Assembly (NCBI GenBank): GCA_964454545.1
Contig: CAYVTI010000011.1
Location: 1 to 57,844 of the forward strand
Direction of reading: 5' to 3'
DNA: 57,844 nucleotides
Source of the DNA: an uncultured Rickettsiales bacterium
GTDB lineage: Bacteria > Pseudomonadota > Alphaproteobacteria > Rickettsiales > JABCZZ01
The position numbers and the translations under genes are program-made. Positions 146 through 31,411 of the stretch are shown piece by piece. A model generated the notes under the pieces. The model was not told the origin of the DNA, searched no databases, and saw only the letters and a program-made list of their open reading frames with translations. The stretch's first letter is position 1. Every line of letters begins with the position of its first letter.

Positions 146-685
146 ATGAAAAAGCAGCTCCCCAACATATTGACCTATTCGCGCATACTGGTGATACCTT
201 TGCTGGTGCTGGTTTTCTATATCGGCACAACGACGGCCGACCTCGTCTGCGCCATGCTTTTCCTCTATGCGAGCATCACCGATTTCTTCGACGGCTATCT
301 GGCGCGCGCATGGCATGCCCATTCGAACCTAGGCAAATTCCTTGACCCGATAGCCGACAAGCTCCTTATTGCCACCTGCCTGATGCTGCTTGTTGGCAGC
401 CACCGGGCCGCCATACTGCCGTCGCTTGCTATTCTGTGCCGCGAGATACTGGTTTCAGGACTGCGGGAGTTTCTTGCCGATTTAAGAATAAGCGTGCCGG
501 TCTCCACCCTTGCCAAATACAAGACCGCCGCCCAGATGGTGGCGATTTTCCTGCTGCTGCTCGGGCCGGGATTTCCTATGCTGCAAACGCTTGGCGACAT
601 CCTGCTCTGGGCCGCCGCGCTGCTGACGCTTGTCACCGGCTACGCCTACCTGCGCACCGGGCTGAAGCATCTGGCGGAGGAGTAA
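146..685 (+). CDS. pgsA: CDP-diacylglycerol--glycerol-3-phosphate 3-phosphatidyltransferase
   Basis: N-terminal LPNILTYSRI and CDP-alcohol phosphotransferase motif DFFDGYLAR..G..LDPIADK. Confidence 0.96.
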   Translation: MKKQLPNILTYSRILVIPLLVLVFYIGTTTADLVCAMLFLYASITDFFDGYLARAWHAHSNLGKFLDPIADKLLIATCLMLLVGSHRAAILPSLAILCREILVSGLREFLADLRISVPVSTLAKYKTAAQMVAIFLLLLGPGFPMLQTLGDILLWAAALLTLVTGYAYLRTGLKHLAEE

Positions 686-689
686 TAAT

Positions 690-953
690 TTACTTTATAT
701 GTAAGCCTTCTTTAATAAGCTGTTTGATAAGAGTCTGATAAGGTATCACCAGTTCATTTGCCCTTTCCTTTACTTCATTGATCAGCCATTCCGGCAACCT
801 GATAGACACCGATCGGGTAGTAGGTTTCAGGTTGGGAAACCGGGCACGCTTGAAATCTCCCGGCTCAAAATGCTCTGTCAGGTCAAGATCCGCCCACCAT
901 TGCGCTTCCTTTTCCTCGTTCTTGAATTTCGATCTGTTAATTGGCTTTTTCAT
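690..953 (-). CDS. BrnA/CopG-like ribbon-helix-helix antitoxin
   Basis: FKNEEKEAQWW...TRSVSIRLP...IPYQTLIK pattern; overlaps the 3' end of a BrnT gene. Confidence 0.85.
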   Translation of the reverse strand: MKKPINRSKFKNEEKEAQWWADLDLTEHFEPGDFKRARFPNLKPTTRSVSIRLPEWLINEVKERANELVIPYQTLIKQLIKEGLHIK

Positions 954-1233
954 ACAAAACTACCTCTTTTTTATTTACGCTCCGCGCTGATATGATTCTG
1001 ATTCTTTTTTTTCTCAGGGTGAAAACGATATACAGCAACCTCCCTTTTTTCGTCTTGCCAAGCAGGATAAAACGGTCCTCCTTATCCGAGTGCTTTGCAT
1101 CGGCCGCTATCACTTTGTTTTCATCAAAAAATACTTCTTCAGCCTCTTCGGCGGCGACGTTATGCTTTTCCAGGCTTTTATGCCTGTTCCACTCGTCCCA
1201 TTCAAACCCTTCGACATCTTTGAATATATACAT
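937..1233 (-). CDS. BrnT family toxin (DUF497)
   Basis: FEWDEWNRHKSLEKH...EEVFFD...HSDKEDRF..LG...IVFTLR...IRIISAR. Confidence 0.92.
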   Translation of the reverse strand: MYIFKDVEGFEWDEWNRHKSLEKHNVAAEEAEEVFFDENKVIAADAKHSDKEDRFILLGKTKKGRLLYIVFTLRKKRIRIISARSVNKKEVVLYEKAN

Positions 1234-1272
1234 GTATATACTGTATTATACAAATACCACCATCCATGTCAA
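1225..1272 (-). promoter_or_regulatory. Sigma70 promoter (TTGACA-16nt-TATAAT) and perfect 16-bp palindrome TATATACATGTATATA over the brnT start codon (probable antitoxin operator)
   Basis: -35 at 1267-1272 and -10 at 1245-1250 on the minus strand; palindrome 1225-1240. Confidence 0.7.
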
Positions 1273-1286
1273 GCATACTTAACCAT

Positions 1287-1396
1287 GCCTGCCTACGCAC
1301 CGGGCTGAAGCGCCTAAGGGGTAAATAGCCATCGTCATTGCCGCCTGCGCGCCGACTCAACTATGCAGGGGAAATATTTCTGCATGACCCTTCCTG
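1287..1396. repeat. Degenerate duplicated junction: pgsA 3' end + collapsed REP-like palindrome + 3' end of ORF 2193-2633
   Basis: CGCACCGGGCTGAAGC at 653-668 and 1296-1311; ATCGTCATTGCCGC at 1331-1344 and 2094-2107; GGGGAAATATTTCTGCATG at 1368-1386 and 2220-2238. Confidence 0.85.
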
Positions 1397-1460
1397 CCAT
1401 TTGTTATTGAACAAACATCCAGCGAATAATAAGCTGCCTTTAGATAATTTCTTATCAATA

Positions 1461-1489
1461 TTGACAAAGGAAATTATTGGGGGTACAAA
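1461..1489 (+). promoter_or_regulatory. Sigma70-like promoter of the second brnTA operon (probably leaderless mRNA)
   Basis: TTGACA-17nt-TACAAA, with the GTG start 5 nt downstream. Confidence 0.55.
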
Positions 1490-1494
1490 TAATA

Positions 1495-1773
1495 GTGAAG
1501 ATTGAATTCAACTATAAAAAGAATCTGAAGAACAAATATGATCCTTCGCGGGGCTTCGGCTTTGAACGCGCTGAAATGATAGATTGGGAAACTGCGGTAA
1601 CGCTTGAGGATACGCGCAGGGATTATGGGGAACGCCGCTATATAACATATGGAATGATTGGCGAAAGGCTGCATGTGCTGGTATGGACGCCAAGGGGCAG
1701 AAAGCGCCGCGTGATAAGCCTGCGTAAAGCCAATCGGAGAGAAAGGAGTTTATATGAAGAAGAAATCCACTGA
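1495..1773 (+). CDS. BrnT family toxin
   Basis: KIEFNYKKNLKN...RGFGFE...DTRRDYGERRY...LHVLVWTPRG...RVISLRKANRRE; GTG at 1495 chosen as start. Confidence 0.9.
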   Translation: MKIEFNYKKNLKNKYDPSRGFGFERAEMIDWETAVTLEDTRRDYGERRYITYGMIGERLHVLVWTPRGRKRRVISLRKANRRERSLYEEEIH

Positions 1774-2086
1774 AACTTTCACGGCCAGCAATGGCGTAAA
1801 AATAGAATACAGTCCTGAATTGGAAGCTGCAAAACCGCTTAATGATGCCGAATGGAAAAGGATGAAGCGCGTAAAGACAGAGGCAGTGCTGTCGCCTGAA
1901 TACATGCAGGCCATCAATGAATTTGTCTCTAAAAAGATGCGTGGAAGGCCGCCCAAGCCCAATAAGAAGAAAGATATAAAGTTGCGCATTGATCCTGACG
2001 TGCTTAAGGCATTCAGGGCGACCGGCAAAGGCTGGCAGACACGGATGAATGATGCCCTGCGCCACTGGGCTGAAGAACGCATATAG
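1754..2086 (+). CDS. BrnA family antitoxin (DUF4415)
   Basis: RGRPPKP.KK.IKLRIDPDVL.AFRATGKGWQTRMNDALR. Confidence 0.92.
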   Translation: MKKKSTETFTASNGVKIEYSPELEAAKPLNDAEWKRMKRVKTEAVLSPEYMQAINEFVSKKMRGRPPKPNKKKDIKLRIDPDVLKAFRATGKGWQTRMNDALRHWAEERI

Positions 2087-2094
2087 AAAAATTA

Positions 2095-2178
2095 TCGTCA
2101 TTGCCGCGAAGGTGGCAATCTCTTCATCAATAGGATAAAATCCGGAAAAAGAGGTTCCCGCCTGCGCGGGAACGACGA
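2095..2178. repeat. REP/dRS3-like bipartite palindromic element
   Basis: TCGTCATTGCCGCGAAGGTGGCAATCT ... GAGGTTCCCGCCTGCGCGGGAACGACGA; two hairpin arms in inverted orientation. Confidence 0.7.
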
Positions 2179-2192
2179 GGAGGAAATAATAA

Positions 2193-2633
2193 TTAAGCGG
2201 CTTTCGCATCCACCATGCCGGGGAAATATTTCTGCATGGCTTCCTGAGTCTTTTTCTTACCTAATGCTTCATTATAAGCGTATTCAGCACCAGCTGGACG
2301 GGGCGGAATATCAAAATATAGGGAATTACTTCTAAATACGTCATCACTAAGAGATGAATAAAGGACTTTTTCTATTCCCATCTGATTAAAGACAGCCATC
2401 ATATCATCTGCATTAAAAAGTTCATGAACCTGATTCTTGTGCTTCTCATATAGATCACGCATCGCATGTAGAGCCCCCATCATGACCAATCCGTCCTCTA
2501 TATTGTCATCTTTTATTCTCATGCATGCTTCATGCTGAAGTAACATGTAAGTTATTTGCAAATTGCTAACTTGAAGAATTGTCTGTGCGATTTCTTCATT
2601 ATTTGTTCTGGCATTCTCGGAATTATAATTCAT
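2193..2633 (-). CDS. Hypothetical protein (146 aa), downstream partner of the 496-aa orphan
   Basis: Open frame with AAGGAAAG upstream; AT-rich; no recognised motif. Confidence 0.7.
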   Translation of the reverse strand: MNYNSENARTNNEEIAQTILQVSNLQITYMLLQHEACMRIKDDNIEDGLVMMGALHAMRDLYEKHKNQVHELFNADDMMAVFNQMGIEKVLYSSLSDDVFRSNSLYFDIPPRPAGAEYAYNEALGKKKTQEAMQKYFPGMVDAKAA

Positions 2634-2668
2634 AAAAAGTTACCTACTTTCCTTATTTGTATATTAGC

Positions 2669-4159
2669 CTACTGGCGAAAAGTACCACTAGGTAATCTTC
2701 CAGGAGCTTTTCCTCCTGCTACCTCCTGATATGCTTGAGATTGTTGCTTGGTTGCTTTAGCATGATCTGATATTACCACTGCAGCTTCATAAGTAGCCTT
2801 TGCTATCTTATCTACTATTTTAGCCCTTTGTTTCGGGTCTATATGATAATTATCAAAGTGAGTTTGGCAGAGTTGTTCAATCTGACTTTTGATATTACCT
2901 TTACTTACATGTCGACGTTGATCTGCCTGAAGCACTTGATCAGTTGTATCCTGTATAGCATTTAACTTGTTTACTTCACTGCCAACGCTGTCTTGGCTAG
3001 CATCTGTAATATTAGATGAATTATGCTGTGCCATTTGCAAACCAATGTTGCGTCTCTGTCCCCTCTGTTCATGAATAACTTTATTAAATTGAACATCTTG
3101 AAGAGATAGCTGTGTCACATATGCCTCTACAGAATTATTTATATCCCTAATCATCTGTGATCTTTCTTCCTCTTTAATCCTTCCTTTTGGAATTACCCAC
3201 AGAAATTTCGATCTATGTGTAGGGACATGATCCGCCACAAGCATAGCAAGGCGTTTCTCCACATCATCATCAAATCTAGTTTTTCCTTCTATTACTCTGG
3301 TGAGAATTTTATCTTTATCACCCACCTGTTCCACCACATCAGTGCCCAATACATCTTGAGCCAATAGATATAAGCGAGAGTAGTCCTCAGATCGCATACT
3401 GCCTTCCATAAATTTCTTATGCGATCTATCTAATTCATCTCCTAAAGCAACTCCTAAAACTTGACGCCCTCTTCCACTTGAATAAAGTTGCGCTAAGATT
3501 TGTACTTCTTGATCAGTGGGTACCACCGGTGGGTTTAAAAAATTTCCAAAGAATGATCTATTAGTATGTAGATCGCCGATAAAATCTGTTACTGCCGCCT
3601 GAGCAAATTCATCTGCACCAAGACCAGAAAATTTTGGATTATGAGAATAGCTTCTAACTCGTCTATCAAGCGCTTGGTCTAATACTTGGATAATAGGTGT
3701 CCACGACGAATCTAATTGTGGTTGTTGAGGCACAGTTTGAAACTGCATTGTTCCCAGCGGCTGGGACAACGGAACGATTGGTTGTTTAGGACCATTTGGC
3801 TGCGAAACTGGACCACTTGGTGCCACCACTGTCTGCAATGTTGGAGAAGATGCTAGTGTCAACGTTTGCTGAGCTAGTGCAGCATGTTTTTTCACCATCT
3901 GCTCAAGTCCGTTCGGCCAGTTTGCATCGGTATATGTTAAAAGTTCTCCTTGCAATGCTGTATCTCTAGCAAAATTAGCATTGAGACTGGATGGATTAGT
4001 CCGTATACCTCTCAAAATAGCATCTAATCCTGCCTGCTTCAATTCGTTCCAACCAATAGATGAATTGTTTCCTAATGCTTCAGCCATTCCATTAATATAA
4101 TCAGATTGAAACTCTGATAAAACACTATTCAGAGCTTGACTTGCTTGTACTACTGCCAT
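2669..4159 (-). CDS. Hypothetical Gln-rich, probably helical protein (496 aa); candidate secreted effector
   Basis: Long ORF with GAGGGG RBS; AT-richer than flanking core genes; Pro/Gln linker around aa 105-150; no recognised domain. Confidence 0.75.
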   Translation of the reverse strand: MAVVQASQALNSVLSEFQSDYINGMAEALGNNSSIGWNELKQAGLDAILRGIRTNPSSLNANFARDTALQGELLTYTDANWPNGLEQMVKKHAALAQQTLTLASSPTLQTVVAPSGPVSQPNGPKQPIVPLSQPLGTMQFQTVPQQPQLDSSWTPIIQVLDQALDRRVRSYSHNPKFSGLGADEFAQAAVTDFIGDLHTNRSFFGNFLNPPVVPTDQEVQILAQLYSSGRGRQVLGVALGDELDRSHKKFMEGSMRSEDYSRLYLLAQDVLGTDVVEQVGDKDKILTRVIEGKTRFDDDVEKRLAMLVADHVPTHRSKFLWVIPKGRIKEEERSQMIRDINNSVEAYVTQLSLQDVQFNKVIHEQRGQRRNIGLQMAQHNSSNITDASQDSVGSEVNKLNAIQDTTDQVLQADQRRHVSKGNIKSQIEQLCQTHFDNYHIDPKQRAKIVDKIAKATYEAAVVISDHAKATKQQSQAYQEVAGGKAPGRLPSGTFRQ

Positions 4160-29113: not shown

Positions 29114-31411
29114 TCAGGGTTTATTAGGACCAGGAGTAGGTGTGTTCGCCCATGCGAGAGCCTTTCTACGAAATTGTACAAAGTCCCTTACGATCTCACG
29201 GGCTTCCCTTCCCAGTTCTGCAGGAGTCGCCTGAACGGCAGCTCCAAGTTTTGCTCCCGCTTGACTAAGATCTCGTGCAATATCTTTTCTGATTTTATGG
29301 CTAACGGCGCTGATGTTTTGCTTAGTGAGCTGACCAGGTATGGCTCCTACGGCAGTTCCAATCTGACCTAAAGCGTTGTTGAAACTATTCCAGTCCTGCG
29401 CCGCCTGGGTAGCCGCCTGTGTCCCCATCCTCTGCAGATTCTGACCTATCTTCTGTCCTCTCTGCTGGATCTGCTGGAGGTCAGCGCCAACCTCTCTCTT
29501 CATATTTCCCGCCATCCGACGGGTTGCGCTCCCTTTGCGGAACCTTACATTCCTGCTCACTTTCCAAGTTGTAGTTCCCTTGCGGAACCCTACATTCCGG
29601 GCCACATTCCGAGTTGCAGTTCCCTTGCTGAATACTACGTTCCTGCCAGCTGTTGCAAACCCATGCCCAACAACCTGCGCTCCTGCTGCAACACCATGAC
29701 CGACAGCCTGCGCGGCATTTACTACATTATCTTTAGCGGTTCGCGCGGTATTCACTACTTTAGCTTTCGCTTTTCCAACAGCTTGTCTCGGATGCAACGC
29801 CGTTCTCGTAGCAAACTTGGCAGCTCCTACCATCTTGTTTCCTGCATTTCTAGCCACCGCGCCGTATCCTCCTCTTTTTTGCACTGCGGCATTTACCTTA
29901 CCGGCAGCGGCTTTGCCAAAATCGAACGCCACTGAGCCAGGACCACGCCCGCCGAAGAAGGTATTGGAAGCCCACCTGCCGACCGCAGATCCCCTTACAA
30001 CGCCTGGCCCTGTTCCTCCCGTTATGTCATTTGAAATCTGCTCGATGAACTTGCTGAGATTCTTGCCAAGATGAGTAAGGAGCAGGAAGTAAAAGACATC
30101 CGCCAGCTGTACGGGCGAAGGCCCTTCCCAGTCCATCCCCTGGCCGCATTGCGCCCCACAGCTGTTGGGGTATTGCCCGATGTTGGTGACGGCAAGATTC
30201 TGATAGGTATCCGTCGGGCGCCACCAGTGAACATCAAATACTCCTATCCTGAAAAATGTCACATAACAATAATTAAGAATACCGATAGCGTTATTGACCA
30301 CATGGCCGTGTATATCGGTATTGAATATCATCGCCGACATCAGGTTCATCAGTATAACGGCATAAAAGCCGAGAAAGGCAAAGAGCAATACAGGCTGCAT
30401 AAAAAAGGCCAGCACCTGGCTGGTCCATCCCATGAAAATCTGCCGGGTTTTCTCAAAAAGGACAAAAGGAAAGAAAATAGGAGCCAGTCCTAAAAGAAAT
30501 GCAAGCCCCACCATGGATCGGACATAAGTTATCATGGCGCCGACAAGCATGAATAAAAATTCCACGACCCCCCATAAAATGGTTACGATTATCAACGGAC
30601 CAAACACCAGCGTCAGGAAAGATGCCATCATGACGACAAATGTGAGGGAAAACACCAGCGTCATGGGACCGGTAAGCGACCCCATACTTCCCGGACTTAA
30701 TCCGCCAGTATCGCTGACCGCATTTTGAAAGCTGTTTCCCGCTCCCGCCTGAGAAAAAGACGCTATCAAATCATTGGTGGTGTGGAGTATGGGCAACGAT
30801 ATCCACTGGCTGAAGAAATTCCATCCGCCCTGCCCCACTACGCTCCAGATTATGCTGATCTTTATGAGGCGGGTTACTATTTCGCCTACGCGCAGTGGCG
30901 CAAGCCCAAACACGATCAGGATTCCATACACTGCCACATATAAGAAAACTAGCGCAGTTATAATGCCTTGATAATTGCTATTCCCTATGATGCCCGTGCC
31001 TGCTAACGGATCGCCGTAAAATGTCTGGGAAACATTACTCAGGACATTATTAATTGTATTGAATATGGCGTTTATAATATCGCTTCCAGGCCCAGATCCC
31101 GGACTCAAAGCTTCGGCCATAAGCCCATAATTGTAAAAAATGCCATTCACCACTTTGCCCGGAGGCTCCAGATCCGTGGCACACAGACAAGTGCTGCCAT
31201 CCCCATTCCTGTTAGGACAGGAAGCATACGTGTCACTATAGGAAACAGCAAGAACCCCGACCGCCAGCAGCAAGACGGCAGACAAAAATATAATTTCACT
31301 GAAGCGCAGGGCGGGAATGCCCCTGCGCATTTTCTGCAAGCATACCGCTAATACAGAGTTATTAGCCGCAGAAATCATACACGTATTTTTCCTCAGAATT
31401 TTAATTATCAT
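29114..31411 (-). CDS. virB6: VirB6/TrbL-family T4SS protein (paralogue 3) with repeat-containing basic tail
   Basis: LAPIFFPFVLFEKTRQIFMGW...QPVLLFAFL; close paralogue of 26936-29104. Confidence 0.88.
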   Translation of the reverse strand: MIIKILRKNTCMISAANNSVLAVCLQKMRRGIPALRFSEIIFLSAVLLLAVGVLAVSYSDTYASCPNRNGDGSTCLCATDLEPPGKVVNGIFYNYGLMAEALSPGSGPGSDIINAIFNTINNVLSNVSQTFYGDPLAGTGIIGNSNYQGIITALVFLYVAVYGILIVFGLAPLRVGEIVTRLIKISIIWSVVGQGGWNFFSQWISLPILHTTNDLIASFSQAGAGNSFQNAVSDTGGLSPGSMGSLTGPMTLVFSLTFVVMMASFLTLVFGPLIIVTILWGVVEFLFMLVGAMITYVRSMVGLAFLLGLAPIFFPFVLFEKTRQIFMGWTSQVLAFFMQPVLLFAFLGFYAVILMNLMSAMIFNTDIHGHVVNNAIGILNYCYVTFFRIGVFDVHWWRPTDTYQNLAVTNIGQYPNSCGAQCGQGMDWEGPSPVQLADVFYFLLLTHLGKNLSKFIEQISNDITGGTGPGVVRGSAVGRWASNTFFGGRGPGSVAFDFGKAAAGKVNAAVQKRGGYGAVARNAGNKMVGAAKFATRTALHPRQAVGKAKAKVVNTARTAKDNVVNAAQAVGHGVAAGAQVVGHGFATAGRNVVFSKGTATRNVARNVGFRKGTTTWKVSRNVRFRKGSATRRMAGNMKREVGADLQQIQQRGQKIGQNLQRMGTQAATQAAQDWNSFNNALGQIGTAVGAIPGQLTKQNISAVSHKIRKDIARDLSQAGAKLGAAVQATPAELGREAREIVRDFVQFRRKALAWANTPTPGPNKP
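29523..29650. repeat. About three 45-bp tandem units encoding RNVxFxKGxxTxxVx
   Basis: Units begin at 29523, 29568 and 29613. Confidence 0.85.

Follow-up and report, generated by a model that had tools for sequence, protein, structure and literature searches.

Two toxin-antitoxin cassettes between pgsA and orf2193 of a Rickettsiales genome are bracketed by copies of gene ends, a footprint resembling long target duplication

How can two toxin-antitoxin (TA) operons come to lie between two genes that both remain intact? This question is raised by the left end of the window analyzed here, the complete 57,844-nucleotide contig CAYVTI010000011.1 of assembly GCA_964454545.1 (57.8 kb, below contig C11), which belongs to the genome of an uncultured Rickettsiales bacterium (G000; 2.22 Mb in 75 contigs, GC content 0.51). 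In this region the gene pgsA and the open reading frame (ORF) orf2193 are separated by two divergent BrnT-type TA operons, TA1 and TA2, with a short spacer between them, and by an element built of repetitive extragenic palindromes (REP) (Table 1). A first-pass annotation had described the spacer as a compressed copy of the pgsA/orf2193 junction and had proposed that each module entered with a long target duplication which left both flanking genes whole. The first claim was confirmed. The second fits the discrete inserts found here, each bounded by a duplicated piece of target, and we hold with moderate confidence that the TA cassettes were inserted with a long target duplication, leaving the footprint known for restriction-modification (RM) units.

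All repeats listed in the first-pass annotation were recovered. The 3' end of pgsA recurs at the left side of the spacer with 23/25 identical positions (644-668 versus 1287-1311), including an exact 16-mer (653-668 = 1296-1311), and extension by 669-672 versus 1312-1315 gives 25/29. At the right side of the spacer the 3' region of orf2193 recurs, with 27/30 identical positions between 1357-1386 and 2209-2238. This match contains an exact 19-mer (1368-1386 = 2220-2238) and a sub-match of 23/24 (1363-1386 versus 2215-2238), and a gapped alignment of 1357-1396 with 2209-2246 reaches 85% of 40 positions. Between the two gene ends lie both ends of the REP element, of which 1331-1344 is identical to 2094-2107 (14/14) and 1338-1351 matches 2155-2168 (13/14). 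Comparison of the 2.1-kb region with the whole 2.2-Mb genome retrieved only these two pairs of repeats, with E values of 6e-4 and 0.026, and copies of the REP element. The pgsA frame of the spacer is open to the TAG at 1326-1328 and reads ...LRTGLKRLRGK before this stop; thus, the duplicated copy runs through the end of the gene. The spacer 1287-1396 duplicates the old pgsA/orf2193 junction in decayed form.

The working copy of pgsA ends with ...YAYLRTGLKHLAEE and a stop codon and resembles the C-termini encoded by relatives. These termini (KHLDT, KHLADN, KYLAQN and KHLSSN) are closer to KHLAEE of the working copy than to KRLRGK of the spacer copy. Both copies in the window share an Arg codon (CGC) at a place where four relatives have Lys or Gln. 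Consequently, the spacer copy originated in this lineage as a duplicate and has since decayed. Tandem duplication of the junction was rejected, as it predicts the orf2193 end before the pgsA end in the middle and the reverse order was observed; a single composite insert consisting of TA1, fossil and TA2 was rejected on the same geometric ground. The first-pass annotation had also recognized a third variant of the pgsA end at 2056-2075. A likeness does exist, with 2063-2075 matching 655-667 at 12/13 positions (17/18 with one gap), but the sequence is ordinary brnA coding sequence. It encodes the family-typical BrnA C-terminus LRHW, which reads LRRW on the metagenome contig L015 and LREW in genomes G345 and G202 of the order, and in Sinorhizobium records brnA-like sequence matches it at the DNA level as well. 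Since this C-terminus is kept in homologues unlike pgsA, 2056-2075 is not a remnant of the site. The likeness between the brnA and pgsA ends is an unexplained coincidence or, possibly, a microhomology.

The annotation of both operons as BrnT/BrnA cassettes was partly right. BrnT was found in both (89.5 and 67.6 bits, Pfam cut-off 34.5) and BrnA in TA2, but the antitoxin of TA1 belongs to the CopG type according to Pfam and not to the BrnA type. Toxin and antitoxin genes overlap by 17 and 20 nt in the two operons. With adjoining, overlapping genes that score above the Pfam cut-offs, both pairs are predicted type II TA modules of the BrnT/BrnA type. The GC content is 0.416 for the TA1 insert and 0.446 for the TA2 insert, compared to 0.572 for pgsA and 0.582 for the spacer fossil. 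A genome-wide search found no paralogue of either insert in G000, and both are single-copy. Neither insert contains a recombinase gene. The genome holds six Phage_integrase matches and one resolvase, none of them on C11, in agreement with the absence of an integrase noted before.

An empty site was found in a genome labelled as the same genus (G003), in which the pgsA stop is followed by 12 nt and the stop of an orf2193 homologue (33% identity), with no TA genes. The genes downstream of pgsA differ in other relatives. A scan of metagenomes for orf2193 yielded a single relative, contig L015, with 38% identity over the whole alignment and 43% in the best tblastn segment. This contig ends inside brnA, and the left part of its array is missing. 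In the orientation of the window it carries a brnA end very like that of TA2, 12 nt, a first remnant of the pgsA end, 5 nt, a CCDC90-like gene on the opposite strand, a second remnant, 4 nt and the stop of the orf2193 homologue. The first remnant has an open frame (HAYLRTGLKYLAEG and stop) and the second is frameshifted. The name of the small gene between them denotes a likeness only (Pfam 27.6 bits, below the cut-off of 33.5). In an alignment, the fossil of the window and both remnants of L015 have starting points that differ by about 5-8 nt and precede the stop by 45-57 nt. Nearly the same stretch is thus duplicated in three remnants, and the pgsA end was therefore hit repeatedly, which bears out the reusable junction suggested by the first-pass annotation. 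The organism of L015 has no match among 400 genomes of the order. An alignment search of genome contigs for orf2193 gave one spurious Bacteroidia match only, and among 12 pgsA/orf2193 loci of relatives a single repeat pair (15 nt exact in L005) was seen and judged to be chance. No source plasmid was found; in distant mode, 673-2092 matched three Sinorhizobium plasmid records, over the 3' part of brnA only (2009-2080).

Logan contigs of four soil-metagenome runs (X1-X4) of one study, which may include the source sample of the genome, bridge every junction of the locus at 100% identity. Records of X1 span 313-848, 1217-1409 and 1913-3200, those of X2 662-954 and 927-1403, and a record of X4 spans 1298-1484. 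Gross mis-assembly is therefore excluded, by support that is not fully independent, given that the records are contigs and perhaps derive from the source sample. Furthermore, X3 and X4 contain an allele without TA2, in which 1330 is joined directly to 2094 over a common stretch of 14 nt. The X3 record (376 nt) covers 1040-1330 and 2094-2178 with 13 differences from the window, and the X4 contig covers 1298-1330 and 2094-2285 with 22 differences and 4 gaps; run X3 also holds the form with TA2. These contigs lack the REP remnant, the copy of the orf2193 end and TA2, and they keep the flank of TA1, the pgsA-end fossil and an intact REP element beside orf2193 in two diverged strains. Parsimony favours this allele as the state before the arrival of TA2. 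The empty and one-cassette alleles envisaged in the first-pass annotation thus have counterparts in G003 and in these contigs. A dating of TA2 from the 3% strain divergence was dropped, as the flanks can recombine independently of the insert. A joint 1140->1233 in metagenome contigs was set aside as probably belonging to another organism. Separately, contigs of X1-X3 match the window only over 1118-1252, the 5' part of the TA1 toxin gene, beyond which, on one side or both, they continue into sequence unrelated to it. This toxin gene therefore has a close copy in another context in the same soils.

The same arrangement recurs elsewhere in G000, as the first-pass annotation had foreseen. A genome scan for short-range direct repeats revealed that the 5' end of prmC is duplicated on contig C1 (53 nt at 90.6%, 33 exact), with weaker similarity extending on both sides. 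Genes for an AbrB/MazE-type antitoxin and a PIN_3 toxin lie between the copies. The upstream copy retains the old start codon and the working prmC ORF begins 11 nt inside the end of the PIN gene, an arrangement in which prmC expression may now depend on the inserted TA operon. There is no TA operon upstream of prmC in G002 and G003, where synteny is not conserved, and the homologous AbrB-PIN pair of G002 is located at another locus without repeats. In total, three of the five TA-type loci found in G000 are bracketed; a Phd-PIN pair (C9) and a PIN ORF (C63) are not. For reference, a comparable repeat pair is present in no more than 10 of 250 random 3.2-kb windows taken from G000. The background amounts to seven distinct pairs, including the prmC case and two that represent tandem paralogues.

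Two further bracketed stretches of this genome were observed. On C14 (13448-16591) about 3.1 kb lacking an integrase gene is enclosed by a duplicated tRNA 3' end (36 nt exact; 48 nt at 96%), and two genes of integrase type occur elsewhere on this contig, at a distance of 7-10 kb. On C32 (5310-6380) the two copies of a 54-nt direct repeat (78%) flank a 303-aa ORF of unassigned function, a candidate non-TA cassette.

Across the order, BrnA homologues were detected in 41 of 401 genomes (G000 counted) and the CopG-type antitoxin in 23. Bracketing repeats were present at 3 of 29 foreign BrnA loci (G345, G044, G005) and at 2 of 27 foreign loci of the CopG-type antitoxin (G115, G068). In G345 the repeat is the hemB 3' end (50 nt at 96%), and the insert consists of promoter, brnT and brnA only. 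In G044 it is the 3' part of a convergent gene (24 nt at 95.8%), and in G005 a tRNA 3' end (16 nt exact) surrounds BrnTA genes together with extra ORFs. The thiC 3' end (43 nt at 93%) is duplicated at the locus of G115, and in G068 the panD/glyS junction is present three times, its copies separating a cassette made up of a REP and two small ORFs from a BrnT/CopG pair. The hemB target also has empty sites: hemB and ubiX overlap as ATGA in G381 and in G180, which is of the same genus as G345, and ubiX directly follows hemB in G305. Genome G202 (L029, G202:C1 1040-1700) carries related BrnTA genes between hemB and ubiX with no repeat, and the last codons of its brnA, read in another frame, provide a new ubiX start and six N-terminal residues. 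In relatives of G068 the panD-glyS interval contains other small ORFs, and no clean empty site was found there. Weak repeat pairs of 14-20 nt in L029 and L038 were not counted, and the repeats in L019, L027, L071, L072, L079 and L081 were rejected as short-range tandem repeats that do not bracket TA genes. The tally is eight bracketed cassettes in six genomes and a further array on L015. Serial arrays with copies of one junction as separators were seen in L015 and G068.

These observations are compatible with the following course of events. In the ancestral locus pgsA and orf2193 would have stood tail to tail, a few bases apart, and the REP element would have lodged between them later. Two unrelated, horizontally acquired BrnT-type TA operons would then have entered separately, each with its own promoter and without a recombinase. 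TA1 presumably entered at the pgsA stop codon and copied about the last 42-45 nt of pgsA; TA2 would have entered on the orf2193 side and copied the REP element and some 40-55 nt of the orf2193 3' end. Both flanking genes are whole because the target was copied, and the displaced copies, coming to lie side by side between the cassettes, would have decayed to the fossil 1287-1396. The joining step would be illegitimate; it may have been the filling-in of a staggered break, a template switch during replication, or illegitimate recombination of incoming DNA anchored by homology. The last route has some support from the G345 case, where both hemB tails are like natural alleles, and from the related cassette beside hemB in another genus. 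In gene-dense genomes presumably only those insertions survive that rebuild the gene they hit, and a putatively addictive TA pair would resist loss. Homologous recombination through existing repeats could subsequently delete, circularize and re-insert cassettes and so lead to junction reuse and arrays. Such later recombination best explains the arrays and the shared left edge of the pgsA remnants. Insertion with target duplication agrees with discrete, recombinase-free and promoter-bearing inserts at several unrelated targets, with repeats of 16 to about 150 nt. A further idea, which we consider unlikely, is that gene ends such as the pgsA 3' end are reusable docking sites in this small-genome order, at which promoter-carrying mini-cassettes of TA pairs and other small genes, having come in together with a copy of the gene end, circularize via their repeats, re-enter related genomes at the same gene end and build integron-like arrays without integrase or attC.

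Several points weigh against long target duplication. The footprint was seen at only 5 of 56 foreign TA loci, and the TA census of G000 comprised five Pfam families and is not exhaustive. We infer the joining step rather than observe it. The copies are 80-96% alike and may never have been identical, deriving instead from two alleles. For G345, 96% identity over the 52-nt core gives way to a sharp difference in the last three codons and the stop, and both tails resemble natural hemB tails. Related BrnTA genes beside hemB in two genera (G345, G202) hint at a site preference or at co-transfer with a piece of hemB. The duplication made with TA2 needs two later deletions in the left copy, one of the REP middle and one of about 32 nt at the orf2193 stop. 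A later deletion between the 14-nt repeats would account equally well for the allele without TA2, and the metagenome runs are from one study and were available as contigs rather than reads. Finally, the three pgsA-end remnants share a near-identical left edge, which random duplication of variable length does not predict, but which is expected if the recombination site is fixed or if existing repeats mediate recombination.

Such a fixed site is the core of the rival explanation that survives best, although we consider it rather improbable. The cassettes would be integrase-less passengers that use a surrogate gene end as attachment site and are moved by a tyrosine recombinase in trans, with arrays formed by accretion, as for islands at tRNA and protein-gene 3' ends and their cis-mobilizable remnants. 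The near-common left edge speaks for it, and so do the L015 and G068 arrays separated by copies of one junction, the tRNA 3' end as repeat in G005, the near-identical core with a divergent tail of equal length in G345, the integrase and resolvase matches elsewhere in G000 and the tRNA 3' end duplicated on C14. Against this, related cassettes sit at unrelated targets (pgsA, orf2193, hemB, thiC, the region upstream of glyS and the prmC 5' end), the repeat length varies, and no common motif was seen at the cassette ends on reading the sequences. The 57.8-kb contig itself is free of integrase genes. Moreover, it is the working pgsA end that is family-like, and the lineage's own Arg codon is present in both copies.

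Alternatively, the TA pairs could be the last survivors of larger elements at gene ends, such as a prophage, an integrative and conjugative element or an integrative and mobilizable element, from which everything but the TA genes and the att repeats was deleted. TA pairs are common cargo of such elements, and in G005 the extra ORFs beside the TA genes, between the tRNA-end repeats, show an HNH-like Cys/His pattern by eye (no Pfam match at E 0.001). Belot et al. 2026 (PMC13617665) propose, in the part of their text available, acquisition by way of mobile genetic elements followed by streamlining. This course is nevertheless very unlikely: the cases compared base by base (TA1, TA2, prmC, G345 and G115) hold little beyond a promoter and two genes. 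The edges of the inserts lie 4-30 nt from the coding ends, and repeated independent deletions are not expected to be so exact.

Even less probable is the mechanism put forward in the first-pass annotation, capture at a REP-marked site assisted by REP-associated tyrosine transposases (RAYT, of the HUH type) or proceeding in an integron-like manner. The element at 2094-2178 is indeed a REP doublet forming hairpins (REPIN), as it is an inverted doublet that forms hairpins and belongs to a repeated family, with copies in G000 on C35, C68 (2) and C34. It lies at the junction, the joint of the TA2-less allele falls within its 14-nt end, and Y1_Tnp fragments occur in the genome. However, the REPIN is intact in the allele without TA2 and is thus older than TA2, the prmC, hemB, thiC and G044 cases showed no REP where their sequence was read, and a flanking duplication was absent at all five REPIN copies of G000 looked at (0/5). 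The only Y1 matches in G000 are two fragments on C50, in open frames of 95 and 85 aa that cover profile positions 34-103 and 74-121, and an intact RAYT (Y1 HUH) gene was not found in this genome. Concerning the integron, no attC-like site was seen in the sequences read, no intI was found on the contig, and the separators are copies of the pgsA and orf2193 ends rather than attC sites. On C68 (2440-3372), two REPIN copies were also observed 752 nt apart within a cluster of other GTCATTGC...GCAATC hairpins, resembling an array of bacterial interspersed mosaic elements.

Chance similarity or mis-assembly, conceivable for short repeats in a metagenome-assembled genome of 75 contigs, is practically negligible in view of the identical Logan contigs over all junctions, the E values and the alignment of the repeats with the G003 empty site and the L015 remnants.

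Table 1: Coordinates of features at the pgsA/orf2193 locus (window positions) and of two loci on other contigs of the same genome
Feature	Position	Strand	Description
pgsA (CDP-alcohol phosphatidyltransferase)	146-685	+	intact; Pfam PF01066, E 7.5e-36
pgsA 3' end, working copy (direct repeat A, left)	644-685	+	ends at stop codon 683-685
TA1 insert	686-1286	-	601 nt, TA genes only
CopG-type antitoxin of TA1	690-953	-	Pfam CopG_antitoxin PF12441, 79.5 bits (cut-off 28)
BrnT toxin of TA1	937-1233	-	Pfam BrnT
TA1 promoter	1272-1245	-	perfect sigma-70 consensus TTGACA-16-TATAAT; promoter scan 12/12
Spacer between divergent TA operons	1287-1396		110 nt; fossil of old pgsA/orf2193 junction
pgsA 3' end, decayed copy (direct repeat A, right)	1287-1328	+	sequence comparison
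REP remnant	1331-1356	+	left 14 nt of REPIN and part of right arm; middle missing
orf2193 3' region, decayed copy (direct repeat B, left)	1357-1396	+	without the ~32 nt holding the last codons and stop
TA2 insert including promoter region	1397-2093	+	697 nt, TA genes only
BrnT of TA2	1477-1773	+	Pfam; alternative GTG start at 1495
BrnA of TA2	1754-2086	+	Pfam BrnA, 84.2 bits (cut-off 26.1)
REPIN-like element	2094-2178	+	85 nt; two inverted REP hairpins; low-copy genomic family
orf2193	2193-2633	-	intact; homologues adjoin pgsA in G003 and L015
orf2193 3' region, working copy (direct repeat B, right)	2209-2246	+	sequence comparison
prmC bracketed cassette	C1 73920-75650 (locus L046 1421-3151)		repeats 74719-74771 versus 75530-75582
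Y1 (IS200/RAYT-type) transposase fragments	C50 1570-1980, 6100-6252 (L001, L002)		only matches in G000; open frames of 72 and 85-95 aa

The REPIN-like element folds with -21.6 kcal/mol (z -4.6), and a site scan marked its right hairpin as a terminator-like site for orf2193, which matched no Pfam family. Upstream of pgsA (1-145) inverted copies of a TAGGTTCT/AGAACCTA motif were observed, which may be a candidate regulator binding site. The stretch 3-56 has a 96% match at the beginning of contig C23, 116-151 is found again in several contigs of G002, and the triplicated junction of G068 (L069) is made of a similar AGAACTTAG-type motif. Farther along the window, 28094-28252 and 30353-30511 are the two copies, 2.26 kb apart, of a direct repeat of 159 nt (80% alike, with 27 nt exact). 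The second copy is located inside an ORF for a 765-aa membrane protein (minus strand, 29114-31411), and the interval between the copies contains small ORFs.

Footprints of this kind offer a handle on how type II TA modules enter ordinary chromosomal positions, a step which Belot et al. 2026 (PMC13617665) call unclear; the terms "direct repeat" and "target" do not occur in the portion of that text at hand. Empty or TA-less alleles are available for the window locus and for the hemB case of G345. If TA operons behave like RM units, two classes of addiction modules would share one transposase-free entry route, and target copying would explain how essential genes that were hit survive in gene-dense genomes. 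An inserted operon may also take over the expression of its neighbour, to judge from the prmC start inside the PIN gene end and the ubiX start of G202 derived from the brnA end.

Islands at tRNA and protein-gene 3' ends duplicate the gene end as attL/attR and leave the gene intact, they form tandem arrays separated by copies of the site, and their integrase-less remnants can be mobilized in cis. The cassettes described here are alike in the duplicated gene end, the intact gene and the arrays separated by site copies. They differ in that there is no integrase in cis, no common core was seen, the targets differ and one target is a 5' end. The minimal mobile elements of Neisseria are different small cassettes that occupy the interval between two conserved genes in each strain, without dedicated machinery; unlike the present cassettes, they are exchanged by homologous recombination of the flanks, which leaves no duplicated target. 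Compared to REPIN/RAYT systems, 2094-2178 is a REP doublet with two hairpins from a low-copy family, a bystander at this locus, and RAYT-like genes are present only as fragments. In chromosomal integrons, small TA cassettes, often with a promoter of their own, are arrayed at one site, as they are at this locus. Here, in contrast, there is no intI or attI, no attC was seen, the separators are copies of the local target and the orientations are mixed. Integron cassettes carrying TA pairs are mentioned in the accessible part of PMC3874152.

The comparison with RM units goes further into the structure of the insertions. The cassettes share with them a small addiction-type unit, the absence of a mobility gene, and direct repeats of more than 30 bp and variable length, which correspond to one copy in the genome of a relative and may overlap a gene 3' end. 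Insertion with long target duplication was reportedly first described for RM units by Nobusato et al. in 2000. Furuta, Abe and Kobayashi 2010 (PMC2853133) describe, in the sections available, RM inserts with repeats >30 bp, no mobility gene and no other mobile element, among them a 46-bp repeat in H. influenzae that overlaps the 3' end of a flanking gene. Correspondingly, the insert is absent and the target single in a relative (G003, the TA2-less X3/X4 contigs and, for G345, the hemB/ubiX empty sites). The repeats exceed 30 bp (about 42-45 nt for pgsA, 40 nt plus the REP ends for orf2193, 53 nt for prmC), with copies 80-91% alike, below most published cases, and the inserts are devoid of mobility genes and far shorter than 20 kb. 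The cargo, however, does not consist of restriction enzyme and methyltransferase genes but of type II TA pairs (BrnT/BrnA, BrnT/CopG and PIN/AbrB) and at least one non-TA small gene; the cassettes are therefore a variant of the phenomenon and not members of the RM set. Further differences are the stacking of several insertions at one junction, where both members of a convergent gene pair were hit, and the greater age of the repeats (80-96% alike). In the available portions of PMC2853133, PMC3874152 and PMC2654758 the term "long target duplication" refers to RM systems only or appears in the reference list only. We rate as new here that TA cassettes, stacked at one junction, carry the footprint known from RM units.

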